NCBI GenBank assembly: GCA_964291405.2
Contig: OZ219926.1
Span: forward strand, 1,792,001-1,856,000
Length of the DNA: 64,000 nucleotides
Source: Thermodesulfobacteriota bacterium
Lineage (GTDB): Bacteria; Desulfobacterota; Binatia; Bin18
Reading direction: 5' to 3'
Part shown: positions 2,849 through 63,149 of the stretch, one piece after another
How the letters are laid out: every line of letters begins with the position of its first letter
Numbering within the stretch: position 1 is the first letter of the stretch
Notes under the pieces: generated by a model
What the model was told of the DNA's origin: nothing
The model's input: only the letters and a program-made list of their open reading frames with translations
The model's database searches: none
Position numbers and translations under genes: made by a program

Positions 2849-3481
2849 TTAAGCGGTCCGCGGCTCCCGGGCCTGTGTGACCCCAATCATACTGTCTCGG
2901 GTGACCAGCTCGGTGAGTGCCTCCTCGCTCATGCCCTCGGTTCCGGCTGGCCGCCGGGGGATCACTAAGTAGCGCATATCGGCCGTGCTGTCGTACACGC
3001 GGACTTCTATATCGGGCGCGAATTCTAAGCCAAATTCTTTGAGGACGGTCCGCGGCTCTTTCACCACCCGTGCTCGGTAATTGAGACTTTTATACCAGTC
3101 GGGCGGCACGCCAAGGAGAGAACGGGGGTAGCAGGAACACAGGGTACACACCACGACATTATGAATAGTCGGCGTGTTCTCCACCGCCACCAGCGTACTC
3201 CAGGTGTCCACGTCAATGCCCAGCGTGGCAATGGCCGCCTTGGCGTCGGCAAGCAGGTGTTGCTTAAAGTGCGGATCGACCCAGGCGCGCGCAATCACCC
3301 GCGCTCCGACTGCGGGAGAGCGGGCATCCATATCTTCGACCGCCCGCCGCACGTCATCCGCGCTCAACAGTCCCTTTTCGATCAGCAGGGCCTGAATGGC
3401 TTCTACCCGCTGCTCGTAATAGGCCAGCTCGGCATCCTCTTCAAGCGGCAGGTGAGGGTCGGGGGCGTCGTGTTCGTGCAT
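2849..3481 (-). CDS. Nitrile hydratase alpha / thiocyanate hydrolase gamma-type subunit (Co-type)
   Basis: VCTLCSCYP metal-binding motif; ARAWVDP, PPDWYKS and LVTRDSMIG. Confidence 0.93.
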   Translation of the reverse strand: MHEHDAPDPHLPLEEDAELAYYEQRVEAIQALLIEKGLLSADDVRRAVEDMDARSPAVGARVIARAWVDPHFKQHLLADAKAAIATLGIDVDTWSTLVAVENTPTIHNVVVCTLCSCYPRSLLGVPPDWYKSLNYRARVVKEPRTVLKEFGLEFAPDIEVRVYDSTADMRYLVIPRRPAGTEGMSEEALTELVTRDSMIGVTQAREPRTA

Positions 3482-3484
3482 CGT

Positions 3485-3790
3485 TTACTCCTCGGGAGCT
3501 GGCTCCAGCCAGTGTTCATAGATATCGATCAACAGCCGGTCATTCTGACAGAAAGGGGTAGATTCGGCGGATTCGGCGTGTACCCACATATGGGCTTGAT
3601 CAAAGCGGACTAAATACAGCGTTTGCTTAGGGCGTCCGTCTCCGCCATACGCCAGCGTCTCGGGGTTACGGAACGCGCCGTGGACCGCCTCGATGACGCC
3701 GACTTTGCCCTGAATATAAGTCGGCGTCCGGTAATGACCGGACGGGGTAGCAATTCGGATACGCACCCGATCTCCGGGCTGATACTGCAT
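3485..3790 (-). CDS. NHase beta C-terminal SH3-like subunit (thiocyanate hydrolase alpha-type)
   Basis: GHYRTPTYIQGKVG, NPETLAYG, LYLVRF and DIYEHWLEPA. Confidence 0.88.
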   Translation of the reverse strand: MQYQPGDRVRIRIATPSGHYRTPTYIQGKVGVIEAVHGAFRNPETLAYGGDGRPKQTLYLVRFDQAHMWVHAESAESTPFCQNDRLLIDIYEHWLEPAPEE

Positions 3791-3799
3791 CGTCCGTCC

Positions 3800-4585
3800 C
3801 TAGTAGGCCGACAGTCCGCCGTCAACCGGCACGACCGCGCCGGTCATCATGCGGGCTTCGTCCGAGGCTAGAAAGAGGGCCACCCGGGCGATATCTTCAG
3901 GCTCACCCACCGAGAACGGATACTTCTTCAGTTGAGATTCCAGGTTGACGATACCGGACTGGCCGGCCGTCTGTGGCCTGTCTACGCCCAGGCGTTGCCG
4001 TACCCGGTCGGTCATGATCACGCCCGGACAGATCGCGTTGGCGCGAATCTTGTCCTTGGCATACGTCCCGGCCAGCACCTGGGTAAAAGCAATGACGCCA
4101 CCCTTGGCGGCGGTATAGACATGCAGCGGAAATGATCCGCGCAAAGCGACGACGGAGGACATATTGACAATCGCGCCACCACCGGCCTTGACGAGTTCAG
4201 GAATCCCGTACCGGCAGCACAAAAACGGGCCGAGCAAATCGAGCGACTGGGTATGCTGCCAGACCGACATATCAACCTCAGTCACCGTCGTGTCTTCGGC
4301 AATTGACCCGCCCGCACAGTTGTACAGAATATCGAGCCTAGCATAGCGCGCTACCGTTTGGTGGATAGCGTTTTTCACACTCTCTTCTTGGGTAACATCG
4401 GTTTCTATGAAAACCGCCTCTCCACCGGCGTCACGGACCAAGCGTTCGGTTTCGCGGCCGAGCTCGGGCTTGAGTTCGGCAATGACGACCTGTGCTCCCT
4501 CTTGGGTAAAAATCCGGGCAGCAGAGCGGGCAATGCCCGAACCCGCCCCGGTAATGAATGCGACTTTGCCATCGAGGCGTCCCAT
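3800..4585 (-). CDS. SDR family oxidoreductase
   Basis: TGAGSGIA, YNCAG, YTAAKGG, and GAVVPVDGG. Confidence 0.93.
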   Translation of the reverse strand: MGRLDGKVAFITGAGSGIARSAARIFTQEGAQVVIAELKPELGRETERLVRDAGGEAVFIETDVTQEESVKNAIHQTVARYARLDILYNCAGGSIAEDTTVTEVDMSVWQHTQSLDLLGPFLCCRYGIPELVKAGGGAIVNMSSVVALRGSFPLHVYTAAKGGVIAFTQVLAGTYAKDKIRANAICPGVIMTDRVRQRLGVDRPQTAGQSGIVNLESQLKKYPFSVGEPEDIARVALFLASDEARMMTGAVVPVDGGLSAY

Positions 4586-4609
4586 CTCTTCCTCCTTTCA
4601 AGCCAGACT

Positions 4610-4933
4610 TCACTCCCCAGTTTCGATTTTACGCTGCTCCACGATCTGTTCAGCCTTGCGGTCAATCTCAGCTTTGGTGAGAACGTTCTTTTCAATCAGG
4701 AGGGTTTCAATCGCGCTGATCCAGCGTTCGTAATAACTCATGGTTTCATATGCCTCGGGCGGCAGACTCTCGATCGCCCGCCGCAACTCATCCACCCGGA
4801 TGACGCGTCGGTCCGCACTACTCAATAGCACGAGGAGTGCGTCGGTCCGCTTCTCCCAGAACGACAGTTCATGTTCCGCCTTGTTGATGGGTCCGGCATT
4901 AGGCCAGCCCCCACGGTCATGTACCCCCGGCAT
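4610..4933 (-). CDS. NHase beta N-terminal subunit (thiocyanate hydrolase beta-type)
   Basis: MPGVHDRGG, WEKR, DELRRAIE and YYERW; start re-called to ATG at 4933 after a GGAAGGA RBS. Confidence 0.88.
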   Translation of the reverse strand: MPGVHDRGGWPNAGPINKAEHELSFWEKRTDALLVLLSSADRRVIRVDELRRAIESLPPEAYETMSYYERWISAIETLLIEKNVLTKAEIDRKAEQIVEQRKIETGE

Positions 4934-5051
4934 GCGACCATCCTTCCTTTTTTTGGGCGGGTCTTTGTATTCTTCTGCCTCAAAAGCCGTGTAAATGGAA
5001 GTACTGAAACAGAGTTTGTCTTCCCTCCGGGGCTCGGTTATAGTCGGCCCC

Positions 5052-5918
5052 ATGCTGAAGGCCGGTGATATCACCATTCACTTTTTGAACGACGGATTGT
5101 GGTGGGATGACGGCGGCGCGCAGTTCGGCATTGTCCCGCGTGAAATCTGGCAACGAGAGAAGCAACCCAACGAGCGCGGGCGCATTACCATGAGTCTGAC
5201 CTGCCCGCTGATTGTGACTCAGAGTGAGCTCATCGTCGTTGACACCGGCATCGGGAATCGGCTGAGTGCACGCGAGCAACAATTTTTTACGCCCCGGCGC
5301 GGAAGCGGTCTGACTGGCCAGCTTCGCGCTCTCGGTTACACAAGGGAGGACGTGACCCACGTCGTACTGAGCCATCTCCATTTTGATCATGTGGGCGGCG
5401 TCATTGATAAAGCGGACGACGGCACGATCACGCCGACTTTTCCCAACGCCCGTGTGGTTCTACAACGAGCGGAGTGGGAGTTGGCAATCCATCCGCCGGA
5501 CGAACGTCTTGCCGCGGCCTACCGACACGCCCCGGAATGCCTGGAGCCGCTTGCGAACATTGATCTCATCAACGGTGATACGACGCTGACCACTCACATT
5601 CGCACAACCGTCTCAGGCGGCCATACCAGCCCTCACCAGTGCGTCATTGTTGAAACGGGTGGAACCGGCCTGATTCACTTCGCCGATATTGTGCCGACGA
5701 CCGCGCACCTGCGTCTCGCCTGGAACGCCGCGTATGACACTGATCCGTTAGCAACGATTGCCGCGAAAAAACGGCTCTACGCCGAGGCCAGACAGAAAAA
5801 TTTATGGGTTTCGTTTTCTCACGACGACGTGGTCGCCGCCGGACGTTTTTCGGACGAAGCAGGAAGAACGCCGACGCTGGCGGAGACGATTCCCATCGCC
5901 CCTCCCAGCGGAGCATAG
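5052..5918 (+). CDS. MBL-fold metallo-hydrolase (YtnP/AHL-lactonase-like)
   Basis: DGGAQFGIVP, SHLHFDHVGG, GGHT and HD motifs. Confidence 0.88.
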   Translation: MLKAGDITIHFLNDGLWWDDGGAQFGIVPREIWQREKQPNERGRITMSLTCPLIVTQSELIVVDTGIGNRLSAREQQFFTPRRGSGLTGQLRALGYTREDVTHVVLSHLHFDHVGGVIDKADDGTITPTFPNARVVLQRAEWELAIHPPDERLAAAYRHAPECLEPLANIDLINGDTTLTTHIRTTVSGGHTSPHQCVIVETGGTGLIHFADIVPTTAHLRLAWNAAYDTDPLATIAAKKRLYAEARQKNLWVSFSHDDVVAAGRFSDEAGRTPTLAETIPIAPPSGA

Positions 5919-27027: not shown

Positions 27028-28194
27028 ATGTTCGTTGCCACGCTCAATCGTCCACTTGCCACGACGATCACCGGCTCTTTGCCACGACCCGAATGGTTTA
27101 CGCTCAACCTTGCCGGCCGCTCGATGTCCTCAGCCTTGTTGGGCGATTATCAGTTTCACGAGCAGTATATTGATGCGGTTGCCAGTTGTATCAGCGATCA
27201 ACGCCGGGCCGGGATCGATATCATGACGGATGGCGATATGCGCTTTGATCGGGATATCGGCGGGCGGGCGTGGTTTGGCTATATCTTTGATCGGGTGGAG
27301 GGCCTGTCGCCCGGTGCGTTGCGCTCCCTCCCGTTCGGCGGCTCTCCGCGAGAACTCCAACCTGGAGATATTTTTCATGAGATTATGGTGACCCGCTTAC
27401 CACCCACAGTCACGGGGCCGGTGAGCGCCGGCAGCCTCGAGTACGATATCGCCTGGAAAACCGCTCAGGGGCTGGCCGAACAGCCGGTTAAATTTGGGGC
27501 CTGCTCGGCCCAGGTTGTCGATATGCTCGTGATTAACGAGCATTACCGGGACCGCCAAGAAACGATCATGGCCCTCTCCCAGGCCGTTAATGGCGAATAC
27601 CATAAACTGGCCGATGCCGGCTGTCCCATTGTCCAGGTCGAAGAGCCGTGTTTCCACTTCGTAGAAGATATTGACTGGGAAATCCCACCTGAGGTCTACG
27701 TGAAGGCCTTTAACCGGGAAGTCGCCGGGCTGCGCGACAAAACCGAAGTGTGGTGCCACACCTGTTGGGGGAACCCGTTTGCCCAGAACCTCGGCTACGG
27801 CGCACGCTATAAGCCCGTTTTGCCGTATCTCGATCAACTTGAGGTAGACGTGGTGACCTTTGAGATGAAGTTCAACAATTTTGCCGAACTCGCCGATGTT
27901 GCCGCTGCTATCGGTAAGGACAAGAAAATCGCTATTGGTGTCGTCTCGCATCGCACCCTGCAAGTCGAAACAGCGGAAGAGATTGCCGAGTCCGTACGCC
28001 AGGCCCTGAAAATTGTTGAACCCGAACGCTTAATTCTCAGCACCGACTGCGGGTTTGGACGCCAGGGCATTTCCCGCAAGCACGCCTTCTATAAGATGGT
28101 CGCGCTCGTCCAAGGCGTCAACGTCGTCCGGCGCGAACTTGGACTGACCCCTGCCGTCATTCCTGTCGAGGCAAGAAACCTGGCGTATTTGTAA
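27028..28194 (+). CDS. Cobalamin-independent methionine synthase II family protein
   Basis: TGSLPRP, TDGD, VQVEEP, HTCWGN and STDCGFG. Confidence 0.88.
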   Translation: MFVATLNRPLATTITGSLPRPEWFTLNLAGRSMSSALLGDYQFHEQYIDAVASCISDQRRAGIDIMTDGDMRFDRDIGGRAWFGYIFDRVEGLSPGALRSLPFGGSPRELQPGDIFHEIMVTRLPPTVTGPVSAGSLEYDIAWKTAQGLAEQPVKFGACSAQVVDMLVINEHYRDRQETIMALSQAVNGEYHKLADAGCPIVQVEEPCFHFVEDIDWEIPPEVYVKAFNREVAGLRDKTEVWCHTCWGNPFAQNLGYGARYKPVLPYLDQLEVDVVTFEMKFNNFAELADVAAAIGKDKKIAIGVVSHRTLQVETAEEIAESVRQALKIVEPERLILSTDCGFGRQGISRKHAFYKMVALVQGVNVVRRELGLTPAVIPVEARNLAYL

Positions 28195-28237: not shown

Positions 28238-29758
28238 ATGAGCACAGAACATTTCGATGTCCTGGTCGTCGGCGCGGGAATCTCCGGGATTGCCGCCGGC
28301 TATCATCTACAGACTACCTGTCCGGGCCGGACGTACGCCATTCTCGAACGCCGCGATACCATCGGAGGCACCTGGGACCTGTTCCGCTATCCCGGTATCC
28401 GCTCGGATTCGGATATGTATACGTTGGGGTATCCGTTCCGGCCCTGGACCGACCCAAAGGCCATCGCCGATGGGCCTGCCATCCTTCGCTATGTCAACGA
28501 GACCGCTCGGGAATTCGGGATCGATCGTAATATTCGTTTTGGTTATCACGTCAAGCAAGCCTCTTGGTCCACAGCGGACGCACGTTGGACGGTCGAAGCC
28601 GAACGGACCGACACGAAGGAGCGCTGGCGCTTCACCTGCAACTTCCTCTTCATGTGCAGCGGGTACTACAACTACGACGCAGGCTATACACCGGATTTTG
28701 CCGGAACCGAGCACTTTCGAGGCCGAATCGTGCATCCGCAGCAATGGACCGACGATATCGAGTACGCGGACAAGCGCGTCATCGTCATCGGCAGCGGAGC
28801 GACTGCGGTGACGCTCGTTCCCGAACTGGCCAAGCAGGCGGCCCATGTCACGATGCTGCAACGCTCGCCCAGCTATATTCTCTCCCTGCCGTCTAAGGAC
28901 TCTCTCGCCAATGCGCTGCGCCGTTTTCTTCCGAATGCCCTCGTCTATCGCCTGATTCGGTGGAAAAATGTGCTTATCGGAGCCTACTTCTTCTGGTTCT
29001 GTCGCTACTCCCCAGAGCGCGCCAAGGCGTTTCTCTTGCGCCAGGTTCGCGCGGCGCTGGGGCCTGATTATGATGTCGAGCAGCATTTCACACCCCACTA
29101 CAACCCCTGGCAGCAGCGCCTGTGCCTGATCCCGGACAGTGACCTGTTCAAAGCGATCAAGGCCGGTCAGGTTTCGGTTGTGACCGACCATATCGAGACC
29201 TTCACCGAGCGGGGCATCCGTCTGCGTTCGGGAAAAACGCTTGAGGCCGGGCTCGTTGTGACAGCTACGGGTCTCAATCTGCAACTCCTTGGTGGTCTCG
29301 AGGTAACGGTCGATGGGGAGCCCGTCGAGTTCTCAAAGACGCTGACATATAAAGGCGTCATGTTCAGCGATGTGCCGAACCTGGCCCTGACTGTTGGCTA
29401 TACGAACGCGTCGTGGACGCTGAAATGCGATCTCACCTGTGAGTATGTCTGCCGCCTGCTCAATTATATGCAGGCGAACGGCTATGCGCAGTGCTGCCCG
29501 CGCCCCCACGACCCGGATATGGAGCGGGAGCCGTTCATCGACTTCACGTCGGGTTACGTCCAAAGAGCAATCGATGCCTTCCCCAAGCAGGGCGTCAAGG
29601 TGCCCTGGAGAGCGTATCAAAATTACCTGCTTGATACCTGGACAGTTGCCTATGGTTCGCTGACTGACGACGCGCTGAAGTTCACCCGGCGACCGGTTGG
29701 ACGACACCAGAATGCTACGACAGACAATGCCACGCTACCAGAGCAAGCGGCTGGCTGA
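28238..29758 (+). CDS. Flavin-containing monooxygenase (EthA-like BVMO)
   Basis: VGAGISG, GGTWDLFRYPGIRSDSD, HPQQW, GSGATAVT and GYTNASWTLK. Confidence 0.93.
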   Translation: MSTEHFDVLVVGAGISGIAAGYHLQTTCPGRTYAILERRDTIGGTWDLFRYPGIRSDSDMYTLGYPFRPWTDPKAIADGPAILRYVNETAREFGIDRNIRFGYHVKQASWSTADARWTVEAERTDTKERWRFTCNFLFMCSGYYNYDAGYTPDFAGTEHFRGRIVHPQQWTDDIEYADKRVIVIGSGATAVTLVPELAKQAAHVTMLQRSPSYILSLPSKDSLANALRRFLPNALVYRLIRWKNVLIGAYFFWFCRYSPERAKAFLLRQVRAALGPDYDVEQHFTPHYNPWQQRLCLIPDSDLFKAIKAGQVSVVTDHIETFTERGIRLRSGKTLEAGLVVTATGLNLQLLGGLEVTVDGEPVEFSKTLTYKGVMFSDVPNLALTVGYTNASWTLKCDLTCEYVCRLLNYMQANGYAQCCPRPHDPDMEREPFIDFTSGYVQRAIDAFPKQGVKVPWRAYQNYLLDTWTVAYGSLTDDALKFTRRPVGRHQNATTDNATLPEQAAG

Positions 29759-29808: not shown

Positions 29809-30909
29809 CTAAGCCATACTCACAATCGCTCGTCCAATAATCTCACCACGACTCAAGGCCGCATAGGCTTCATCCGCCTGTTCCAGGCCGTAACGCCGCG
29901 TAATAGGTTGAGACACATTCACCTGCCCCTGGGCTGCCAAGGCCAAGACCTCGGGCAGGTCGGTGCGGACACGACTGCCGTAGGAGCCCATAAGCTGAAT
30001 GCCACGGCGGACCAGACGGGTAATCTCGATGCCCGCAGTTGTCGTGCCTGGGGCAATACCGATCACCACGACCCGCCCCCCATCGCGGGTCATCATGAAC
30101 GCGTTCACCACGGTCTCCGGTCGTCCCAAGGCTTCAATGGCTACGTCCACCCCCTGGCCGTTGGTGGCATTGTTCACGGCTGCGACGGGCTCTTCCTGAC
30201 TGGCATTCACGGTATGGGTTGCGCCCAGGGCCTGGGCCGCTTCCAACTTATCGTCACGTACATCAACCGCGATAATCTGGCCGGCCCCAAAAGCCTTGGC
30301 GACCTGAACAACATTTGACCCCACACCGCCTGCACCGACGATGGCCACGCTATCGCTCGGTTGGACTCGCGCCTGATTCTTCACCGCACCATAGGCTGTC
30401 ATCATGGCACAACCGAGAATGCACGCATCGGTCAGGGACACATTGGCAGGAGCGGGAAAGACATCGCTGGCTGGAACAACCGCGTACTCAGCGAGGCCAC
30501 CCATACTATACATCGCCAGGGGCGAACCATCGGAACGAGAGAGACGACTCTCCCCATCGTAGAGCGTCCCCTTCAGACGGTTCAGGGCGAAGAAGATTTC
30601 ACACAGATCGTCCCGACCCTGCACACAGTACGAGCACACTCCACACGGCATGATAAAGCTACACACCACGTTCTCTCCGGTCCGTGTCGTTTGCACCTCG
30701 GGACCGACCTCCTCAACAATGCCAGAGATCTCGTGTCCCAGTACACACGGCACCGGGAACTTCACTTCACCCTTCATCACATGCAGGTCGGTATGACACA
30801 CACCACACGCGGCGACTTTGACCAATACTTCACCAGCCTTGGGACGGGGTTGCGGAATATCCTCAATAACCAACGGGCCACCAACTTCCGACAGGACTGC
30901 AGCTTTCAT
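29809..30909 (-). CDS. Zinc-dependent alcohol dehydrogenase
   Basis: CGVCHTD, GHE, CGVCSYC..C and GAGGVG. Confidence 0.92.
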   Translation of the reverse strand: MKAAVLSEVGGPLVIEDIPQPRPKAGEVLVKVAACGVCHTDLHVMKGEVKFPVPCVLGHEISGIVEEVGPEVQTTRTGENVVCSFIMPCGVCSYCVQGRDDLCEIFFALNRLKGTLYDGESRLSRSDGSPLAMYSMGGLAEYAVVPASDVFPAPANVSLTDACILGCAMMTAYGAVKNQARVQPSDSVAIVGAGGVGSNVVQVAKAFGAGQIIAVDVRDDKLEAAQALGATHTVNASQEEPVAAVNNATNGQGVDVAIEALGRPETVVNAFMMTRDGGRVVVIGIAPGTTTAGIEITRLVRRGIQLMGSYGSRVRTDLPEVLALAAQGQVNVSQPITRRYGLEQADEAYAALSRGEIIGRAIVSMA

Positions 30910-31007
30910 CTGGAGATTCCTCCTTATACGCCTGAGTATCCTATGCCGCGTTGACATTTTCGCCAAGGCATTTCTATTATTCAAAACGAGAGAGAGGGAG
31001 GTTCGTC

Positions 31008-32273
31008 ATGAAGACCGACCGTTTCGGGAACCCATTTGCCGAGGCTCTGCCGTACGCCCGAGGGGCTATCCTGACCAGTACGGAGGATGATTTCCGCAAA
31101 CTTCAGCAGGCGGGCCGGATTGTCCGACGCCGCATCGGTGAGAATGGTCCCGAGGCAATTTTCAATTTTACCGGGCTCGAACATGGCCTGCCGCTCAGCG
31201 GCGAGGATATCCTGTTTGCCCACGATGAAATCGCGCCCGCGCTGTATACGGAGCAGCTCCGCCGGCTGACGCTGGAGCACCTCGGCGGGTCTCCGGATCG
31301 TCACGACGTCATGCTCTTTAATCGACTCACCGCTGCCACATTGGCGACCCATCTCGTACTGGTGAAACCGGGCGCTGTCGTCATCGGGGTGTCAGCCAGC
31401 CATAGTCATCCGTCCGTCATTCGGGCGGCCGCACATGTCGGCGCGCGCCTCGTGGATACCAAAGGTGTAGAGGAGTTTACTGCGGTGCTGGAGCGAGAAA
31501 GAGAAGTCGCCCTGGTTGTGCTCACTCGCTTAGCGGTGACCTATGAGGCACTGTCCGTTGAAGCGTTGCAGCAGATCGTCCGTCTGGCTCACGAGCGGGA
31601 TATCCTCGTGTATGCGGATGAGGCTGGTGGGGCGCGGGTCGGTCCCGCTATCCTAGAGCAGCCCAAGATGCTCGAACTCGGCGTAGACCTGGGCGCGACC
31701 GGGCTTGATAAGTATGGCACCAGCGGCCCACGGGTTGGATTGATGGCGGGCGAGCAGCAGCTTGTTGCCCGCATCCGGGCGCGTGCCTGGGAGTTTGGGC
31801 TTGAGGCCCGCCCCCTGCTGTATCCGGCAGTCATCCGCTCGCTGGAAGCCTACACACCGGGACGTGTGCAAGCCCTGGTTGATAGCACGAAACAGGTCGC
31901 AACCGCTCTGCGGACTCTCTTGGGGAGCCGTATACACGAAACGCCCGTGATCGCCGAGCTGCCGGCAGACGATATACTCGAACTGGTCCTGGAGCGGGCC
32001 GGTCTGAGCGCGGTCCCGCAGGCACCGATTGTTCCGTACGAGGCGGCTGCCGCGTTGGCTATGCTGCTCTTGCGGGATTATGGCATTCTGGCGGTTCATT
32101 TCGCCGCCCTGCCACCCGGTACGGCCGATTTCCTGTTCAAGTTTATGCCGCCAGACACGGTAGAGCGATTCGGCGGGCCGGATGCTTTCGCCCAGGCTAT
32201 TGATGCCTCACTGCACAAGCTGGCGGGCCTGGTCACCCGGCCCGAACATATGCGGCAACTCTTGTTCGGTTAA
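31008..32273 (+). CDS. SelA-like PLP-dependent enzyme (MJ0158/UPF0425-like)
   Basis: FNFTGL, FNRLTAA, SHPSV, DEAGGAR, GLDKY (PLP Lys) and GPRVGL. Confidence 0.7.
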   Translation: MKTDRFGNPFAEALPYARGAILTSTEDDFRKLQQAGRIVRRRIGENGPEAIFNFTGLEHGLPLSGEDILFAHDEIAPALYTEQLRRLTLEHLGGSPDRHDVMLFNRLTAATLATHLVLVKPGAVVIGVSASHSHPSVIRAAAHVGARLVDTKGVEEFTAVLEREREVALVVLTRLAVTYEALSVEALQQIVRLAHERDILVYADEAGGARVGPAILEQPKMLELGVDLGATGLDKYGTSGPRVGLMAGEQQLVARIRARAWEFGLEARPLLYPAVIRSLEAYTPGRVQALVDSTKQVATALRTLLGSRIHETPVIAELPADDILELVLERAGLSAVPQAPIVPYEAAAALAMLLLRDYGILAVHFAALPPGTADFLFKFMPPDTVERFGGPDAFAQAIDASLHKLAGLVTRPEHMRQLLFG

Positions 32274-32326
32274 CACTCCAGCAGGCAAACAACACCGCGC
32301 TCATTGGCCTAATGGGCCGCCACCCC

Positions 32327-32416
32327 TCAAAACGGCTCCAACTGATCCGCGGTCTTTTTCCTCCGGGGCGGCGCCTGACTCCGGCGACGTTCGAGCAGTT
32401 GTTCCTTAATATCGGC
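32327..32416 (-). repeat. Displaced 90-bp copy of the 3' end of the EndoQ-UvrD gene (left island boundary)
   Basis: Ungapped match to 36399-36488 with 16 mismatches by hand count; encodes ADIKEQLLERRRSQAPPRRKKTADQLEPF*. Confidence 0.9.
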
Positions 32417-32550
32417 CTATGGGCTTGGCCGATGCCTCTCTTGTGTGCTTGGCAGACTAGCTCGGAATACGAGATATCTTTACGCTTGACCGAAACGACT
32501 TTCAGACTTATCGACTGCACGGCCTGCGTACGTTTCATCTCTGACCGTAA
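32410..32550 (+). pseudogene. PIN-domain (VapC) toxin C-terminal remnant
   Basis: RPMGLADASLVCLAD*LGIRDIFTLDRNDFQTYRLHG, matching the PIN ADASLV...IFTLD..DF motif; in-frame TAG at 32458. Confidence 0.75.
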
Positions 32551-32626
32551 TTTGACGGCTTAGAAACTGAACCAACCAATCAAGCCCCTTTACCTAAATC
32601 GTTTCTGGGATAGCATCCCTCTTGCC

Positions 32627-34195
32627 TTACCCAGATTCTTCTGCGGTTGCAGGAGGCGGTGCACTGCTTGCAGCTTCACAGCCCGTAGTAGATACATTAT
32701 TTAAGATTTCTTTAAGCCTTTCCAGATAGGTCGGATGTGATTCTTTGCCAAGGGCTTCTATGGCTTCTTTATTGTCTTCATTTACCTTAGAGAAGGCAGC
32801 GATGGCGGCTCGGGTTCTTCGACCAAAGTCACCGTCGATATTAGTTTTTCCATCTTTACGGGTTTGCGCCAGACATCCCATGTCGACGAGGCGTTGCTGG
32901 ACCTGGCTTACCTCATTGGATTCTTTCGGTTCGAATTTTGGCTCAATGTGAACCAACAGAGTTGCTCGCCCTCTACCAGAATCTTTGAGGCTCAAAGTAT
33001 AAGTCTCACGCTTGGCTTGGGCGGTCACGGTTATCTCCACCTCAGCATCGTCTGCGCTACCATAGTCATGATTCACGGGCTGGAGACTGACATCCACCCC
33101 AGGTGTCTGACCTATCCACCGAGCCGAGTAGGGAGGCACGCCACCGCTCAGATAGATTTTTGTGAGACGGTCAGGCGTCGCCGCACTGATATGGACACTA
33201 GAGGCTGGATCGACGCGAAACGTTAGGCCAGCCGAGGTTGCGTCAATCTGACTACATGCTTCGATTTGTTCACTATCTGGACCGGTATCGAGTCCAATCA
33301 GCATCTGTTCAATGACGGCGGTCTGCTCTTTAACGGCGTCAGCAGCATCTCGCAATGGGTTTAATATATGATCACTAAGTTTTGTTGTTAGCTCTCCGGG
33401 GGCGTCCAAAGGTTGGCCGGTGATCAGACCAGCCTGGATAGGAATAGTTTTAGACAACGTGGCGACGAGACTCGCTACATCCGGTTCGGATTCGGTTAGT
33501 GCTTTAGTGACTTTTGACCGGATGAGGTGAACCGCATCGTACAACGTGACGGCGGCTCGTTTCCGTAACGTTTTGACTGTACCACCTTTTTCCAGAGCTG
33601 CCTCAGCGTTACTGAAAATGATTCCTGCCCGGACAACGTCAGGACTCTCATCTCCCCGTTTCTTTTTGGCAATGTCAAGCTTCGTTTTCAGATCTGGTAA
33701 GGCATTGCGGAGTGTCGTCATTTTCATGTCTAGGTCACGATCGAAACCCGTACTATCTATAGCCCGTACGGGTCCGAATACTGTCAGGGTGCAGGTAAGA
33801 GCGTCGATACCAGCTTGATAAGCAAGCAGCTTTGGCCGCCCGTGTAGCCAATTACGCAGACTGTAGAGCCCAGCCCCACCGACGCCGAGGCCTGTGATAG
33901 CATCCGAGCTCCCGTTAGTAATACCTAGAACGAGTGCGGCTGCGGTTGATCCAATAAGAGTAGATCCTACCGCTCGGTTAAAGCCAGTGTGCTCGCGAAT
34001 GGCTTGATAATAGACCCCTCGGGTATCTTCGGCATATTTCACCGCATTCGTTAACGATTTGGTTTCCCTGAAGAGGTCATCCTTAGGCTCGACATATGGG
34101 TCCACGACAGCCATACACGAGGCTAAGACACACAGGAGTATTGCGAAAGCAATGAAGCTAGCAGTACAGTTGAACCAACGGGTATACATGTACAC
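32627..34195 (-). CDS. Lipoprotein with Gly-rich hydrophobic hairpin, helical region, Ig-like segment and C-terminal PG-binding domain
   Basis: Lipobox LASC; SGGVPPYS Ig-like motif; VSQVQQRLVDMG...IDGDFGRRTRAAIAAF. Confidence 0.7.
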   Translation of the reverse strand: MYMYTRWFNCTASFIAFAILLCVLASCMAVVDPYVEPKDDLFRETKSLTNAVKYAEDTRGVYYQAIREHTGFNRAVGSTLIGSTAAALVLGITNGSSDAITGLGVGGAGLYSLRNWLHGRPKLLAYQAGIDALTCTLTVFGPVRAIDSTGFDRDLDMKMTTLRNALPDLKTKLDIAKKKRGDESPDVVRAGIIFSNAEAALEKGGTVKTLRKRAAVTLYDAVHLIRSKVTKALTESEPDVASLVATLSKTIPIQAGLITGQPLDAPGELTTKLSDHILNPLRDAADAVKEQTAVIEQMLIGLDTGPDSEQIEACSQIDATSAGLTFRVDPASSVHISAATPDRLTKIYLSGGVPPYSARWIGQTPGVDVSLQPVNHDYGSADDAEVEITVTAQAKRETYTLSLKDSGRGRATLLVHIEPKFEPKESNEVSQVQQRLVDMGCLAQTRKDGKTNIDGDFGRRTRAAIAAFSKVNEDNKEAIEALGKESHPTYLERLKEILNNVSTTGCEAASSAPPPATAEESG

Positions 34196-34211
34196 TTCCC
34201 CTGCTGAGCTA

Positions 34212-35279
34212 TCAGGCGACTAGGGTTTGCAAAGCGTTTTTACGTTCTGCGTCGAAGCGATTCTGAACGGCCTTTTTCTCTCGTACAGTAGAACTCGTAA
34301 AGTAAATGTCGACTTTAGAGCGTTCATCGTAGATAGCATTAATAAGAGCTCTGTCAGAAGCCTGAAGGGCAGGACTTAAGGTATTAAGCGCACGGGTAAA
34401 AATATGGACACTACGAGGTCCGTGCTGGACACTGACCGACCAAGCCACATCGCGCAGGACTTTGGACCGTGTCGCGATATCAAAGCCATGGTGTCTGGAC
34501 AATGTGTTCACAAAGACGTCGTAGTGAGTAGCCTTGATATAGTCGTGTTGGGCTGTAGAGAAGGCAGGATCAGTGGCCAGTTCCTTCCACGCGGCTTGAA
34601 AGCTCGGGGTACCCGCACGCGCTTGGGCGTCACCGCCCGCGGCTTCAAGTTCGTCCGCAAAGGTCTGGTAAGCCATTCGTGTTTTAAGAAAGTCAATAAA
34701 GTCGCGGATTCGACGCTTATTGGAAGCCAGTTGGTAGAGGCCATAGGACCATCCTCCGTTTTTGTCACGGCCAATGGCAGCAGGATTTCCTCTAGATTCA
34801 TACCGGCGTGATAAGATTCCTAATTCTTCTTTGGGAGCGTGAATTAAATCGCCGGGTTTGAGGACGCAATTGCCATAGGCGGCTTTCTCAAAGGCAACCC
34901 CCATTTCCTGAGGCTCACACTTCCCTTGCCTAAAGAGTGCCCAATGAACCAGTTCGTGGAGGATGGTGGCTTCAATAAGTTTCTGTTTGTTTACATTGGT
35001 AGAGTCTTGCTCAAAATCATTAACCAATTTTTTGCCAAGATTGATAGTGTCGGGCAGACTCTCATCAAATTGACCATAAGACCCTTTTAGATCGTATATA
35101 AACAGCCGGGGACAGGTTCCAAATAGGAGAGCATTGCGGGCCGTTTCTTGGGGATACTGAGTGTGGCCTAAGAATGCCTCCCAGACTTGGGTTTTAGATT
35201 CGATCTGCGGCAATTCGGTTTTGACCCAGCTAGTCAATATTCGATAAGATTTTTGTTGGACCCCTAGTATCTTGACCAT
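34212..35279 (-). CDS. HExxH metallopeptidase fused to a lysozyme-like (VgrG3-C-like) domain
   Basis: ATILHELVHW...EMGVAFEKAAYG; LSRRYES.G...GGWSYGLYQL; WSVSVQHG; IYDER; NRFDAE. Confidence 0.72.
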   Translation of the reverse strand: MVKILGVQQKSYRILTSWVKTELPQIESKTQVWEAFLGHTQYPQETARNALLFGTCPRLFIYDLKGSYGQFDESLPDTINLGKKLVNDFEQDSTNVNKQKLIEATILHELVHWALFRQGKCEPQEMGVAFEKAAYGNCVLKPGDLIHAPKEELGILSRRYESRGNPAAIGRDKNGGWSYGLYQLASNKRRIRDFIDFLKTRMAYQTFADELEAAGGDAQARAGTPSFQAAWKELATDPAFSTAQHDYIKATHYDVFVNTLSRHHGFDIATRSKVLRDVAWSVSVQHGPRSVHIFTRALNTLSPALQASDRALINAIYDERSKVDIYFTSSTVREKKAVQNRFDAERKNALQTLVA

Positions 35280-35375
35280 AGATACTTTCTCCTTTTTATG
35301 TTGATGACATCAACTATCCGTTCTGCCTTCCTCCTGCGTAATACAAATAATCTACACCTGTGGGCTGCTCTGCGA

Positions 35376-36311
35376 TTAGAGTCGGACTTTTGACGCACGC
35401 GCGTCTTCCAAAAGATCCAGGAGTTTCGGCCAAAAGTCTGGGGCGGCCTCGTCTCCTAATGTTGCGGTACGATCCTCCCCAACAATGTCTTCTGTAGTAA
35501 GAAAGCGTTCGATAGCCTCACGCGTCTTCGGACCGAGGAATCCATCGTCCAAACGTCGCCCATCTTCGCTCACAGGGGGCAAGTAGTTGAGCGTAATGAG
35601 ATGGGTTTGTACCTGTTGGATAGTGTGGTCTGAGCCTAAGGGGTGTTCGTCCGTATCGAGATTGTCACTCCTCGATTGAAGTGGCTCGATCTGTGGGCTT
35701 ACCTTGGAGCCAATCTCGTCTTCGCGTATCACCGGTTTGCTAGGCATAAACAAGTTATCAATCAAATCGCTGAGTTTGTCCGCAACTTGCCTGGAGAATA
35801 GTCCACTTAACCCTGCAAGAAGGATTACGAAATAGATGTGTGAAGGAATATTGAGTTCTAACTCTCCAAACACGCCAGCCCGGACTGCAACATAGACAAG
35901 CAAGGCTAACATCGTCCCGATTGGAATACGTACATAGAGCCACCACAACCAACTACGCACGAGCTGACGGTTGCCTGCAAATGTAGCAAACGATGTCATA
36001 GTATGAATGGCACTGCCTGTCGCTCCGGCGAGCACCACCAGCAGAAGCAACTGGCTTGGCGAGATGCAGTCGCTCAAACATGTTTCCGTCGTAGTTTGTT
36101 GAGCACCAACGGTTGGTAGAAACCACAGTAGGAGTCCCAGGATTACACCAGAGATGAGCATCAATGGAACCCCATATTTCCAGTAATCTTTGATCGCAAT
36201 ATAGACCCGCTTTGGGCGATACTCATCGACCTCGATGTTAGGCATGCTTAAATTGTCCGAGAAATTCTGCATTATCTGTACTCCTAATGGGATATGAAGA
36301 GTTTCGATCAC
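35376..36311 (-). CDS. Multi-pass membrane protein with C-terminal PG-binding domain
   Basis: About 4 TM (GATGSAIH, WWLYVRIPIG, GLSGLFS); IQQVQTHLITLNY...DDGFLGPKTREAIERF; start uncertain. Confidence 0.7.
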   Translation of the reverse strand: MIETLHIPLGVQIMQNFSDNLSMPNIEVDEYRPKRVYIAIKDYWKYGVPLMLISGVILGLLLWFLPTVGAQQTTTETCLSDCISPSQLLLLVVLAGATGSAIHTMTSFATFAGNRQLVRSWLWWLYVRIPIGTMLALLVYVAVRAGVFGELELNIPSHIYFVILLAGLSGLFSRQVADKLSDLIDNLFMPSKPVIREDEIGSKVSPQIEPLQSRSDNLDTDEHPLGSDHTIQQVQTHLITLNYLPPVSEDGRRLDDGFLGPKTREAIERFLTTEDIVGEDRTATLGDEAAPDFWPKLLDLLEDARASKVRL

Positions 36312-36398
36312 TTATTATTCTTTCGCATTCCAGATCAGTTCCTAGCTGAGAATGGTCTCCTCGAACTCATTATTGTCAACGGGGAAATGCCATCCACC

Positions 36399-39300
36399 TC
36401 AAAACAGCTCCAACTGATCCGCTTTCTTCTTCCCCCGTGCACTCAACTGACTCCGACGACGTTCGAGGAGGTGTTCCTCAATATCGGCTAAATACGGGGA
36501 GGGTGACATGGGTTGCATCATCCCACGCCAGCGGCGTTTCTGTGCATGACACAGATAGAGTTTGGTTTTTGCCCGCGTGACGCCGACGTAGAACAGACGG
36601 CGCTCTTCCTCAAGGTCGGCAGCTTCGGCCTTGCCCCAGGTCAGCGGGAGAATGCCATCTTCACAGCCAACGATAAAAACAACGGGGAATTCCAAACCCT
36701 TGGCGGCGTGGAGGGTGAGTAAGGAAATCCGGTCGGCGCGTGGGTCCCAGGTATCGACCTGCGTTTCGAGCGCAAGGGCGGAGAGAAATCGATCCAGATC
36801 GTCCCCACACTCCTGAGCGACGGGTTGCAGGAGTTCAAGGGCCGCTCTTGTCTCCTCTCCTGCCCCAGTGGCCTCAGTTTTTTCACACGCGGCTTCAAGC
36901 CGCGCAACCAGAGTACCGTCGCCGGGCTGTTCGCGCAGAGTGTCGATCAGTATCGCCATACCAGGATGGTCGAGCAGCCGCGTATGGGCGTGTTTCTGAA
37001 ACGGCATACCCGAACGGTGGAGGGCTTCAACAACCGCCTCTGCTTGGGCTTCGGTTCGGTACAGCACGACGATGTCAGAAAAGGAGACGGCCCGGTCTTC
37101 GGCGTCTCGGGATCGACCGCTATCGATCGAAAAGAAGCTGTGTCCACCCAGCAGCGTTTCGATTGAGTGCACGACGAACTCGGCCTCGGCCTTCTCCGTC
37201 CGCGCCTCATGCAGCGTGATTAAACTTGGGGTGTCGGCAAGAACCGGAGTGGATTTCTGCTCAGACCCGGACGGTGCAATGACCTGGGAAGAGAGATGGA
37301 CGATGTTACTGTCAGACCGATAATTCCGCGTCAGGCGGACTACCTGCGTACCGGGGAAATCAGTAGTGAACTGGGCGAAGAAACGGACGTCCGCCCCACG
37401 GAAACGATAGATCGCCTGATCCGGATCGCCAATCGCACAGATGTTACCGTCGGACGGCACGAGCAGCTTGATGAGACGGGCCTGCTGCTCGTCCACGTCC
37501 TGATATTCGTCAATACACACCCATTGGTAGCGCTCACGATAGACGTCACGCAGGCCGGAGTCGGCCTCGAAGGCCTGGATCGTGCGGCCAATCAGATCAT
37601 CGAAGTCGACCAGATTCCGCGCGTCCAATTCCCGTTGGTATCGGTGATAGACTTCGGCCTGCCGAGCCTCAGCCGGCGCCTGTCCCGTTCGTTTTGCCAC
37701 CGAAATGGCTGACAGCAGGCTGCGTGTCCGGCGAGCCGAGACGCCAAGTGTTTCGCGCAGCAGATGTTGACGCTCCGCGTCTGACGCGACCCGAAAGCCC
37801 CGTTGGAGACCTGCCGCGTTCCAATGTTCCTGGAGAACGGACAGGCCCAAAGCGTGAAATGTAAAAAGCGGAATCGTATCGGCAACAGCGGGCAGAAGAC
37901 GGTGTAAGCGTTCGCGCATTTCGTCCGCAGCTCGGCGGGTAAACGTGATGGCCAAGCAGTGTTCGGGACGGACGCGGTGGGTGCGGATGAGATGGGCGAT
38001 ACGATGTGTGAGAGTGCGCGTTTTTCCAGAACCCGGTCCGGCAACAATCAGCAGCGGGCCTGCTATAATCTCGGCGGCCCTCCGCTGGTCGCTATCAAGT
38101 CCGGCTAAGATATCTGCGGACGGCACCGCTGTTGTATCGTCTGAAGGTGCAGGAGACACGCTGGGAGTATGGGTTAGTGCAGCGTCTGCTTTTCGCCGTG
38201 TCGCTCTTCTCTGCTTGGGACTGTCCACTACACGCACATCGGTCGACGTATTTTCCTGCTTGGTCTGGAGTGGGGGCTCCTGTGTGAACAACGACGCGCC
38301 GCTCGTCTTTTGGCGCAGCTCTTCCTCCCGGAACAGCCTGATTGTTCCGTACACACCGTCATAACCAGCTTCGCGGATCACTTCTTGTTTGCGCAGTCGG
38401 GAGATGGCTTCCGCAATAAGCGTGTCTCCGCCTTTCCGAATCTCTTCTAGCGGAATATCGTTGATCAATTGCAGTTCGGGCCCAAGGTGGTTGAGTAAGC
38501 CCTCGTAGTAGTGGCCCACCTTTTTACTCTTCGGACCTACATGCAGAATCTCGGATAACATCTCGGGGAGAGGAACAAGGCTCTGGACCGCGCCGGCAGT
38601 CTCGGGCTGAGTGTCGTCTTCACGGTCGGCCAAATCGTCCACCCGGTGCATCACGCCCACCGTCAGCGGCTTGCCACACGCAGGACAACGGCCCTCAAAT
38701 TGTTTGGTCTGGTGCGGTAGGAGGCGGACCAGACAATTTCGATGCCCGTCCAGGTGGTATTTGCCCTCTTCAGGAAAAAACTCGATCGTGCCCTGATACC
38801 CCTGTCCGGTCTCCAGGGCGCGACGGATCGAGAAATAGTCAAGCTCCGTATCAAACACACAGGCTTCGCGCCCGAGCTTCTCCGGCGAGTGTGCATCGGA
38901 GTTTGACACCAACCGGAAGCGATCTAGAGACGACACCCGCCAGTTCATCTCCGGGTCCGACGACAAGCCCGTCTCCACCGCAAAGATATGGGGAGCCAGG
39001 TCAGCGTAACACTCGTCTATGGCATCAAAACCGGACTTTGAGCCCAGCGCGGCAAACCACGGTGTCCAGATATGGGCCGGGACGAGATACGAGCCAGGGT
39101 CCGACTCCAACGTGATTTCCAAGAGGTGGCGGGAGTCCAGCCCCAGGATAGGTCTGCCGTCCGACTTCACATTCCCGATCCTGGACAACCGTTCGGTCAT
39201 CCTTTCCACTGCCGAAAAGTTTGGGGCGTATAACAAATGGTGAATCTTTCGGGTCTTGTCGCCCTTTTTGTAGATCGTCGAGATTTCAACCGAGAGCATG

Positions 39301-39563
39301 AAACGTGTCGTACCCTGGCACGCTGACGGTAGCATCTGGGCGACTTCTTTTTCCAGCTCGGGGCGGAGGCGGAACAGGCCCGGCTCGGCAGGTACCAACT
39401 GCTCCTTGAGTTCGGCCTGCCAGACCGGATGGGTGAAGTCCCCGGTGCCGACGACCGTGATACCCTTTTTCCTGGCCCAGTAGGCAAGATGTTTTAAATC
39501 ACAGTTTTTACTGGTGGCGCGGGAATATTTGGAATGAATGTGCAGATCAGCATAAAAGGCCAT
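36399..39563 (-). CDS. Endonuclease Q-like PHP domain fused to a UvrD/PcrA superfamily-1 helicase
   Basis: ADLHIHSKYSRAT, GTGDFTHP, PAHIWTPW, NSDAHS, GKYHLDGHRNC..CPACG; AGPGSGKT, ITFT, IDEYQD, GDPDQAIY, NYRS, HAAKGLEF and YVGVTRA. Confidence 0.92.
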   Translation of the reverse strand: MAFYADLHIHSKYSRATSKNCDLKHLAYWARKKGITVVGTGDFTHPVWQAELKEQLVPAEPGLFRLRPELEKEVAQMLPSACQGTTRFMLSVEISTIYKKGDKTRKIHHLLYAPNFSAVERMTERLSRIGNVKSDGRPILGLDSRHLLEITLESDPGSYLVPAHIWTPWFAALGSKSGFDAIDECYADLAPHIFAVETGLSSDPEMNWRVSSLDRFRLVSNSDAHSPEKLGREACVFDTELDYFSIRRALETGQGYQGTIEFFPEEGKYHLDGHRNCLVRLLPHQTKQFEGRCPACGKPLTVGVMHRVDDLADREDDTQPETAGAVQSLVPLPEMLSEILHVGPKSKKVGHYYEGLLNHLGPELQLINDIPLEEIRKGGDTLIAEAISRLRKQEVIREAGYDGVYGTIRLFREEELRQKTSGASLFTQEPPLQTKQENTSTDVRVVDSPKQRRATRRKADAALTHTPSVSPAPSDDTTAVPSADILAGLDSDQRRAAEIIAGPLLIVAGPGSGKTRTLTHRIAHLIRTHRVRPEHCLAITFTRRAADEMRERLHRLLPAVADTIPLFTFHALGLSVLQEHWNAAGLQRGFRVASDAERQHLLRETLGVSARRTRSLLSAISVAKRTGQAPAEARQAEVYHRYQRELDARNLVDFDDLIGRTIQAFEADSGLRDVYRERYQWVCIDEYQDVDEQQARLIKLLVPSDGNICAIGDPDQAIYRFRGADVRFFAQFTTDFPGTQVVRLTRNYRSDSNIVHLSSQVIAPSGSEQKSTPVLADTPSLITLHEARTEKAEAEFVVHSIETLLGGHSFFSIDSGRSRDAEDRAVSFSDIVVLYRTEAQAEAVVEALHRSGMPFQKHAHTRLLDHPGMAILIDTLREQPGDGTLVARLEAACEKTEATGAGEETRAALELLQPVAQECGDDLDRFLSALALETQVDTWDPRADRISLLTLHAAKGLEFPVVFIVGCEDGILPLTWGKAEAADLEEERRLFYVGVTRAKTKLYLCHAQKRRWRGMMQPMSPSPYLADIEEHLLERRRSQLSARGKKKADQLELF

Positions 39564-62474: not shown

Positions 62475-63149
62475 ATGGCACGAGTAATTGACCTCCACCT
62501 TCATTCTGAAGTCTCGGACGACAGCCGTGCGCCGGTCGAGGCCTACCTCAAGTGGCTAGCCCGTAAACGAGACGAACGGCCGCTAGACGGCATCGTGCTG
62601 ACCGAACACCGCCAGTTCGACACCCAGAGCGACTACCGGGCGCTTGAGGACAAGTATGGCATGCTGATCCTCAAAGCCTCTGAGGTCGAAACCGAGTACG
62701 GTCATGTTCTTGTGTATGGAGTCAATGACGCAATGCTGCAACGCTTCGACTTTTCCAACGTCCGACTGCGGGCCCAAGAGGTGATTGACGAAGTGGCGCG
62801 CATGGGCGGGGTGGCTATGCCGTGTCACCCGGGTCGGCCCACGATTGGCTTGATTGAGCACTATGAAAACCGCCCTCCGCTTGAGGGGGTGGTTGGCGTC
62901 GAGGCTCTGAACGGCGGAAGTAAAAAAGGCGAGAATGAGCGCGTTGCTGAGCTTATCGATACGTACGGCTACCACGCGTTTGGGGGGAGCGATGCCCATC
63001 TGGTGAGCTTTGTCGGGATTTGTGCCACAGAGTTTGAGAAAGATATTACGAATACGGAAGAGTTGGTTGAGGCGCTGCGGACGGGCGGCTACCGCCCGGT
63101 TGATTTTCGTGTCCGGCGAGCCCCGGTCCAGCCGGCCCCAGCGGCATAA
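62475..63149 (+). CDS. PHP domain-containing protein
   Basis: IDLHLHS, LTEH, GHVLVYG, CHPGR and GGSDAH. Confidence 0.88.
   Translation: MARVIDLHLHSEVSDDSRAPVEAYLKWLARKRDERPLDGIVLTEHRQFDTQSDYRALEDKYGMLILKASEVETEYGHVLVYGVNDAMLQRFDFSNVRLRAQEVIDEVARMGGVAMPCHPGRPTIGLIEHYENRPPLEGVVGVEALNGGSKKGENERVAELIDTYGYHAFGGSDAHLVSFVGICATEFEKDITNTEELVEALRTGGYRPVDFRVRRAPVQPAPAA

Follow-up and report, generated by a model that had tools for sequence, protein, structure and literature searches.

What do three adjoining genes, for a membrane protein, a cell-wall hydrolase without a leader and a large lipoprotein, do for a bacterium that has acquired them together? We addressed this question for a trio found in a stretch of 64,000 nucleotides (hereafter the window; contig OZ219926.1, positions 1,792,001 to 1,856,000, assembly GCA_964291405.2) of a Thermodesulfobacteriota bacterium. 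A sequence-only reading of this DNA had proposed three co-oriented genes, and their open reading frames (ORFs), here called p1, p2 and p3 in the direction of transcription, were confirmed on the minus strand, with slightly shorter starts now supported for p1 and p3. The genes are real, homologues of each being found elsewhere with conserved synteny. As the same reading had noted, no type VI secretion system (T6SS) or phage genes were seen in the window; none of the 55 window ORFs scanned matched such a family. No description of the trio was found in the family libraries and the literature searched (articles without their supplements), in keeping with the earlier remark that no known system could be named, and p1 and p3 represent two undescribed protein families.

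Domains of the three proteins

The central gene, p2 (34212..35279, minus strand), encodes a protein of 355 residues that, from its ORF, its Pfam domains and the alignment of its family, is predicted to be a leaderless bifunctional wall hydrolase. The N-terminal part (residues 9-136; 34872..35255, minus strand) matches the zincin family Tox-MPTase3 (Pfam, E 9.3e-18) and the C-terminal part (residues 153-345; 34245..34823, minus strand) matches the VgrG3-type lysozyme family T6SS_VgrG3-like_C (PF21277, E 1.5e-37). When a profile of 18 members of the p2 family was compared with the Protein Data Bank (PDB), it recovered the C-terminal domain of Vibrio cholerae VgrG3 (4NOO, E 3e-24; 4NSO, E 6.7e-24), which bears out the kinship with VgrG3 first suggested from the sequence. 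H108, E109 and H112 of the HExxH motif, F130, E131, E161 and D172 are invariant in all 18 aligned p2 sequences. E161 and D172 align with conserved acidic residues of VgrG3, which we take to be catalytic. For Tox-MPTase3, the motifs given in the paper that defines the family are K, HExxH and F[DE] (PMC3482391). With its catalytic motifs intact, p2 joins two domains predicted to act on peptidoglycan (PG), a small zincin peptidase and a VgrG3-type muramidase. Because no 19-residue window of p2 rises above a hydropathy of 0.6, the protein has neither a signal peptide nor a transmembrane (TM) segment, and the original description of a leaderless protein joining an HExxH peptidase to a lysozyme-like domain holds. 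A search of 5.8 billion proteins with p2 returned 94 at E ≤1e-3, and both domains were present in only 17 besides p2, at 41-53% identity.

Upstream of p2 lies p1 (35376..36272, minus strand), which encodes a polytopic membrane protein of 298 residues. Homologue alignments and the protein database place its start at the ATG at 36272; an alternative GTG at 36311 would give 311 residues. Four hydrophobic segments were counted in a hydropathy scan, and the AlphaFold2 (AF2) model (pLDDT 80.7) consists of four long helices (27-175) and, after a disordered linker, a compact C-terminal domain (213-297; window 35382-35636). This domain superposes on the PG-binding domains of SleB (6tci; Z 7.0, rmsd 2.1, 60 aligned residues) and SltB3 (5anz; Z 7.0, rmsd 1.7, 56 aligned residues, 29% identity), and Pfam PG_binding_1 matches p1 at E 0.014, short of its cut-off. 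The sequence-only picture of about four TM segments followed by a PG-binding motif is borne out by these models. In two distant relatives of p1 a TIG domain stands in place of the PG-binding domain, and these relatives, together with the close PG-binding fold, suggest that the C-terminal domain is periplasmic. A search of the ESM Atlas with p1 gave no usable match.

The third gene, p3 (32627..34189, minus strand), encodes a lipoprotein of 520 residues, defined from the ORF, the lipobox, the AF2 model and Pfam, and its start at the ATG at 34189 is backed by homologues and the protein database. The lipobox cysteine, Cys25, is invariant in all 86 family members, as are C133 and C312, and the invariance of the latter two fits a periplasmic protein. 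The AF2 model (pLDDT 85.5, pTM 0.69) shows long helices (46-313), within which a Gly-rich hydrophobic helical hairpin occupies about residues 68-115, followed by an Ig-like beta-sandwich (320-416) and a PG-binding fold (426-498). Pfam recognizes PG_binding_1 in p3 at E 7.8e-5, so that the hairpin, helical stalk, Ig-like segment and PG-binding motif read earlier from the sequence are all recovered. Over their first 300 residues, p3 and its 86 relatives are covered by no Pfam family; elsewhere in the relatives PG_binding_1 alone recurs (29 of 86). Pfam assigned PG_binding_1 to eight of 28 long relatives and Metallophos and Flg_new_2 to one each, with two further weak matches below the cut-off. 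The family counts 5439 cluster representatives at E ≤1e-3, 1663 at 1e-10 and 418 at 1e-30.

Foldseek comparison of p3 with the PDB returned Ig-domain matches only, at E >0.001, and in a wide structure search its helices reached Z scores of up to 9.5 on generic helical proteins, which is under the tool's meaningful level for helical bundles; the helical region is not claimed as a new fold. The best ESM Atlas score was 0.82, to unnamed clusters. In a comparison restricted to sequence, a p3 profile matched among PDB chains only the PG-binding stretch of a VgrG3 fragment and no immunity chain. In having a Gly-rich hydrophobic helical hairpin after the lipobox, p3 resembles the glycine-zipper lipoproteins of the SlyB/17-kDa antigen type, but the Pfam glycine-zipper families match neither p3 nor its 86 relatives, and p3 adds about 400 residues with a stalk, an Ig domain and a PG-binding domain. 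In E. coli the residue that follows the lipidated cysteine tells inner from outer membrane lipoproteins. An Asp was found after the lipid-bearing Cys in none of the eight aligned p3 relatives, which by the E. coli rule suggests sorting of p3 to the outer membrane. The host is diderm, Omp85 being present.

The zincin handle and its exchangeable heads

Loci with p2 relatives were drawn from scans of genome and metagenome collections. The trio recurs in unrelated bacteria. Both p2 domains were found at five other loci (L012, L022, L045, L046 and L055), and a p3 relative adjoins in all five, running off the contig end in L046 and L055. A p1 relative lies upstream in L022, L045 and L046, in the same order as in the window, which establishes the co-occurrence of the three families outside this genome. 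The membrane protein of L012 is a different one, having only its C-terminal domain in common with p1, and the contig of L055 begins at p2, the position of p1 thus falling outside it. Where contigs reach far enough, then, the neighbour is always a membrane protein that ends in this PG-binding domain. The p1 and p2 ORFs of L045 overlap by 4 nt, and in the window p2 and p3 are spaced by 16-22 nt. Genes beyond the module in the other loci are unrelated to it and metabolic.

The association of p3 goes with the zincin domain, which we call the handle, and not with the lysozyme domain. A p3 relative was found in 7 of the 53 handle loci (5 of the 19 flanked by no less than 1.8 kb on either side), compared with 0 of the 52 loci that have the lysozyme domain only (0 of 24 with the same margins). 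Several loci couple the handle to other C-terminal domains, or heads. At L090, a handle+M23 gene and a handle+SLT gene are neighbours with no gene between them, and beside them lie one p3 and one PG_binding_1 membrane protein that is a remote relative of p1 (hhalign probability 93%, E 2.6e-7). The SLT copy (L090:6738-8087, plus strand) has lost the HExxH motif while keeping the sequence signature of the fold, which argues that the handle has a role beyond catalysis. At L113 a handle with another, unassigned head is followed by p3 and then by a relative of the L012 membrane protein; the hhalign comparison of this relative with p1 was not significant (E 0.71). A 149-residue protein made of the handle alone precedes p3 at L093, downstream of an ECF sigma/anti-sigma pair. 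Judged from these sequences, the zincin domain is the constant handle of a small family whose C-terminal head is exchangeable (M23, SLT, other or none).

Small leaderless proteins of about 146-150 residues consisting of Tox-MPTase3 only were also seen, often preceding a homologous family of about 140-150 residues that bears a signal peptide or a lipobox (L079, L083, L085, L086/L087, L118); at L036 the ORF that follows has a lipobox (L036:8414-9061). These downstream proteins have no Pfam match and are candidate periplasmic inhibitors or immunity proteins.

Complex prediction, which the sequence-only reading had put forward as a check, was carried out for p2 with p3 and gave a score of 0.44 (runs of 0.50, 0.43 and 0.44) compared with 0.00 for the best of three controls, a result rated as weak support. 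Of 157 solved complexes 116 attain the mark used, as do 2 of 215 mismatched pairs, and at scores ≤0.60 it is reached by just 18 of the 157 complexes and by both of the passing mismatches. Contact agreement between the runs was at least 24%, with a partner pLDDT of at least 75. Because of this co-folding and of the strict adjacency of the two genes, we infer that p3 may be the direct partner of the handle.

The main rival to a dedicated handling system, and one that we regard as rather doubtful, is an antibacterial toxin with periplasmic immunity, in which p2 would attack the walls of competing bacteria, the producer would be protected by p3 and perhaps p1, and delivery would fall to an unlinked machine or to lysis of the producer. 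In the classic effector-immunity layout, the gene of a leaderless enzyme with a periplasmic target directly precedes that of a periplasmic lipoprotein, as p2 precedes p3; the other handle-only genes likewise precede small secreted proteins or lipoproteins at the loci just named, and the co-folding of p2 with p3 lends this view weak support too. In its lysozyme domain p2 resembles VgrG3, a T6SS effector, and Tox-MPTase3 was defined in polymorphic toxins (PMC3482391). Against immunity stands the constancy of p3, which is kept with the handle as the toxic head changes. Since the two hydrolases of L090 differ in their heads with no immunity gene interposed, no part of the cassette varies in step with the head. 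With a hairpin, a stalk, an Ig domain and a PG-binding domain in its 520 residues, p3 is moreover far more elaborate than known immunity proteins against PG hydrolases, and the conserved p1 is left without explanation.

Nor were signs of delivery by a T6SS found in what we scanned. The gene for the T6SS sheath protein TssC (PF05943) was not found in any of the three trio-bearing genomes (the window's own, which is 97.5% complete, G432 and G433), and no VgrG, PAAR, RHS or PVC gene was seen beside the 17 handle loci scanned. Although the C-terminal domain of p2 is homologous to that of the VgrG3 of the V. cholerae VgrG3/TsiV3 pair (4NOO, 4NSO), with the aligned E and D invariant, p2 lacks a fused VgrG spike and its genome has yielded no sheath gene. 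In Zhang et al. 2012 (PMC3482391), Tox-MPTase3 is the C-terminal tip of long RHS or PVC-type toxins, with no immunity family known. The p2 domain is in the same Pfam family and has the HExxH and F[DE] motifs, but here short leaderless proteins with a PG-hydrolase head have it as their constant N-terminal part, in one case with HExxH lost. Bacteriocins of the pesticin and colicin M type, for their part, have periplasmic immunity proteins. They recall p2 in being leaderless proteins of about 355 residues with a C-terminal muramidase, a different N-terminal module and an adjoining gene for a periplasmic partner. The N-terminal module of p2 is however a zincin with intact catalytic motifs instead of a receptor-binding or translocation module, and its partners are two large membrane-anchored proteins instead of one small immunity protein.

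Viral relatives of the lysozyme domain raise a further explanation, namely that the trio is what decay has left of a lysis cassette from a prophage or tailocin. The domain occurs widely in viral contigs (203 stretches matched) and matches PHROG families, and the order of membrane protein, hydrolase and lipoprotein mimics that of holin, endolysin and spanin. We nevertheless consider a remnant highly improbable. No phage family was found in the window, and in all 80 viral loci kept of the 203 stretches the lysozyme domain lies in other, mostly long ORFs (median 824 residues). Profile searches found the handle, p1 or p3 in none of these 80 loci, and the trio is intact in several contexts that are not phage. 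On both counts, sheath gene and viral loci, the trio maps outside known T6SS and prophage loci, as first proposed.

An island at a hot spot of insertion

The trio sits on a horizontally acquired integrative island. This follows from direct repeats in which the target gene's 3' end is duplicated and from an empty site in relatives, and it vindicates the acquired island of the sequence-only reading. The insertion that carries p1, p2 and p3 is 4.07 kb long, its GC content is 0.485-0.531 compared with about 0.58 in the surroundings, and it is bracketed by a 92-nt direct repeat with copies at 32325-32416 and 36397-36488 (83% identity). Copy 2 (36397..36488, minus strand) is native and forms the 3' end of a PHP-UvrD helicase gene (36399-39563), and copy 1 (32325..32416, minus strand), at the left edge of the island, is an in-frame decoy comprising the last 29 helicase codons and the stop; translation of either copy gives a similar 29-residue helicase tail. 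Relative to congeners, copy 1 is the diverged one, and copy 2 differs only slightly from the single copy of G004 and G011, whose flanks are contiguous around it and form the empty site. The right end of the island (36273..36396), between the start of p1 and copy 2, is non-coding and presumably holds the promoter. A promoter and terminator scan of the island gave a signal no higher than the shuffled expectation, and an Rfam scan of 31800-37000 had no match. No recombinase or integrase was found on the island in a domain scan of its three ORFs, and there are no other long ORFs there.

Directly after the decoy lies a remnant of a PIN-domain (VapC-like) toxin gene (32413..32547, plus strand), a 3' end of 45 codons with an internal stop that was recovered by tblastn with residues 92-136 of a congener PIN protein (80% identity over 45 residues, E 3e-23). 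The PIN protein that matches this remnant occupies another variable gap in G010 and G007, between the homologues of the window genes 28238-29758 and 27028-28194. At the spot where the trio is inserted, G001, G002, G005, G007 and G010 carry inserts of 0.73-0.99 kb, each with a 151-residue ORF. All three of these ORFs that were scanned (G010, G005 and G002) are PIN-domain proteins, and in G010 a Phd/YefM antitoxin ORF lies beside it. The insert of G006 is a 2.2-kb mix of Phd-like, ArsR, AHSA1 and RibD_C genes. The insertion site is a hot spot for conflict-type cassettes. The variable gap extends between the gene for a PLP enzyme and the 3' end of the helicase gene (window 32273-36399; congener loci L125-L131), and in G005 145 nt of the helicase end are duplicated as well. 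A hot spot that holds toxin-antitoxin pairs in congeners, together with a patchy spread across phyla, is typical of conflict genes and to that extent fits a toxin with its immunity.

It also fits abortive infection, in which the cell would lyse altruistically on phage attack or stress with p1 as trigger and p2 as executioner. Besides the VapBC pairs in congeners and the vapC remnant on the island itself, this view draws on a cassette that is small, autonomous, devoid of cargo and spread by transfer, and on an enzyme that is leaderless and harmless until released. We think it very unlikely, however, since no sensor domain is evident, neighbours at the other loci are metabolic genes and not defence islands, and none of the 5027 defence models of PADLOC matches p1, p2 or p3.

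The distribution of the trio is that of an accessory element. Searched in 41 related genomes, p2 was found in this genome only and in 0 of 24 other congeners; a p3 profile matched 1 of 401 genomes of the phylum, again this one, and a p3 search of 400 genomes of the same phylum and 399 of the class of G432 gave no further locus. Such rarity, on a low-GC island, speaks against an envelope-spanning complex that would remodel the wall as the cell itself grows or when a large structure is inserted, in the manner of hydrolases under membrane or lipoprotein regulators, as does the lack of an export signal in p2. This explanation would account for PG-binding domains on both p1 and p3, in opposite membranes, and the helical lipoprotein recalls the lipoprotein or coiled-coil regulators of wall enzymes; we give it little probability.

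In each of two metagenome runs a contig extends over the island with its junctions and shows no differences (X1 record 4, 32204-36426; X2 record 10, 32256-35971). The word depth of the island contig was lower than that of the flanks: 40.3 in X1, compared with about 66-134 for the flanks, and 4.5 in X2, compared with 14.8 for the left and 4.3-7.8 for the right flank, these depths being sums over related strains and not copy numbers. When window 30500-38500 was compared with both runs, loose ends at 32309-32311 and 36397 marked alternative junctions. Depths and loose ends together are a weak hint that island-free relatives may coexist in the two samples.

Other features of the neighbourhood concern the target gene and its surroundings. 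The PHP-UvrD gene (36399-39563, minus strand) encodes a fusion of 1054 residues with a PHP-type N-terminal region (TIGR00375-like) and a UvrD/PcrA-type helicase, which scores strongly on GajB models owing to its helicase core, and a second PHP_C protein is encoded at the end of the window (62475-63149, plus strand). Two near-identical copies of the PLP-gene/VapBC/helicase region are present in G001 (C1:77000-85000 and C1:5131000-5139000; L129 and L130), either as a large duplication or as two strains in one assembly, whose stated contamination is 8%. Unrelated to the trio is a set of nitrile hydratase alpha/beta genes (window 2849-5077, minus strand) in which a short-chain dehydrogenase separates the two halves of the beta subunit.

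Proposed handling of a leaderless wall hydrolase

Release cassettes for chitinase in Serratia and for the Tc toxin of Yersinia entomophaga are examples of type 10 secretion. The closest described logic to that of the trio appears to be that of such release systems derived from holin, endolysin and spanin (PMC10847048, PMC13284979, PMC10101115). There as here, one non-phage gene cluster specifies a membrane protein, a leaderless wall hydrolase and a lipoprotein, and the hydrolase, having no signal peptide, needs another way through the inner membrane. The trio differs from these systems in that p1 matches no holin family and has a PG-binding domain, p3 is a single lipoprotein of 520 residues without spanin architecture, no cargo gene is present, and the hydrolase is a fusion of a zincin and a VgrG3-type lysozyme with swappable heads. 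No homology of the trio to these systems was detected in scans of Pfam, NCBIfam and PHROG. The holin/endolysin/spanin-like logic of the sequence-only reading thus survives in the leaderless muralytic enzyme and fails for p3 as a spanin, while p1 matches no holin family. As the constant partner of p3 is the zincin and not the lysozyme, and in view of the missing holin match and spanin architecture, a dedicated partner or keeper of the enzyme fits p3 at least as well as a spanin. The broad idea of a self-contained, PG-directed system of three parts is supported, with export, lysis and antagonism as candidate roles.

We tentatively favour the view that the trio forms a self-contained system, with p1 and p3 handling a leaderless and polymorphic wall hydrolase by a logic like that of holin and endolysin. 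The constant handle, the swappable heads and the sharing of one p3 and one membrane protein by the L090 hydrolases argue that the role of p1 and p3 is tied to the handle and is not the neutralisation of one toxic head, and for this reason a dedicated handling system is preferred. In such a system p2 would be made in the cytoplasm without a leader, with both of its domains directed at the wall, and p1 would act as its gate or passage in the inner membrane, a holin-like role. Tied to the outer membrane and to PG, p3 would capture p2 by the zincin handle and would position or restrain cleavage, so that the wall might be opened locally and on command. The outcome would be a lysis-type release of the cell contents or of the enzyme itself. 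We infer the passage of p2 to the periplasm via p1, and the biological purpose of the trio likewise.

Several observations weigh against a dedicated handling system. Scans of p1 against Pfam, NCBIfam and PHROG (E ≤0.1) found no holin or transporter family and only the weak PG_binding_1 match, and fold searches beyond the PG-binding domain gave generic helical matches only. Many invariant polar residues (H90, R115 and others) lie within the helices of p1, unlike in typical holins, and with four TM helices the positive-inside counts would place its PG-binding domain in the cytoplasm. For p3, spanin architecture is missing, as there is no C-terminal TM segment and the only other hydrophobic stretch is the hairpin near 72-105; a second small lipoprotein gene was not found on the island. 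Nor is there a cargo gene on the island, which holds only the three genes and the vapC remnant. The complex score of p2 with p3 is weak and comes without an interface, the ECF sigma/anti-sigma pair of L093 stands in place of a p1-like gene, and the neighbourhood support amounts to eight loci in all, some on short contigs. Finally, a handle-only gene followed by a gene for a secreted protein of about 140-150 residues is a toxin-immunity layout and favours an immunity role for p3.

A bolder version of the handling system, which we consider unlikely, is that p1 and p3, in the inner and the outer membrane, form a minimal PG-anchored export or release apparatus, so far unrecognized, that takes an N-terminal zincin fold, active or degenerate, as a cargo mark and moves leaderless muramidases, M23, SLT and other hydrolases from the cytoplasm. 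If true, this would be a new compact secretion or controlled-lysis system, a three-gene cassette that moves across phyla.

Two live questions of secretion and envelope biology are by what route, outside phages, wall hydrolases without a leader get across the inner membrane and by what means cells avoid being killed by such enzymes. The cassette offers them a compact and portable test case, with one enzyme that appears to have two intact activities and two partner families most of whose length lies outside any described domain, and its design of a handle plus a swappable head points to a recognition code. If the partners are immunity proteins, they would represent a new class of immunity and p2 a T6SS-independent family of wall-targeting toxins; if they export or gate p2, the trio would be a new minimal release system.

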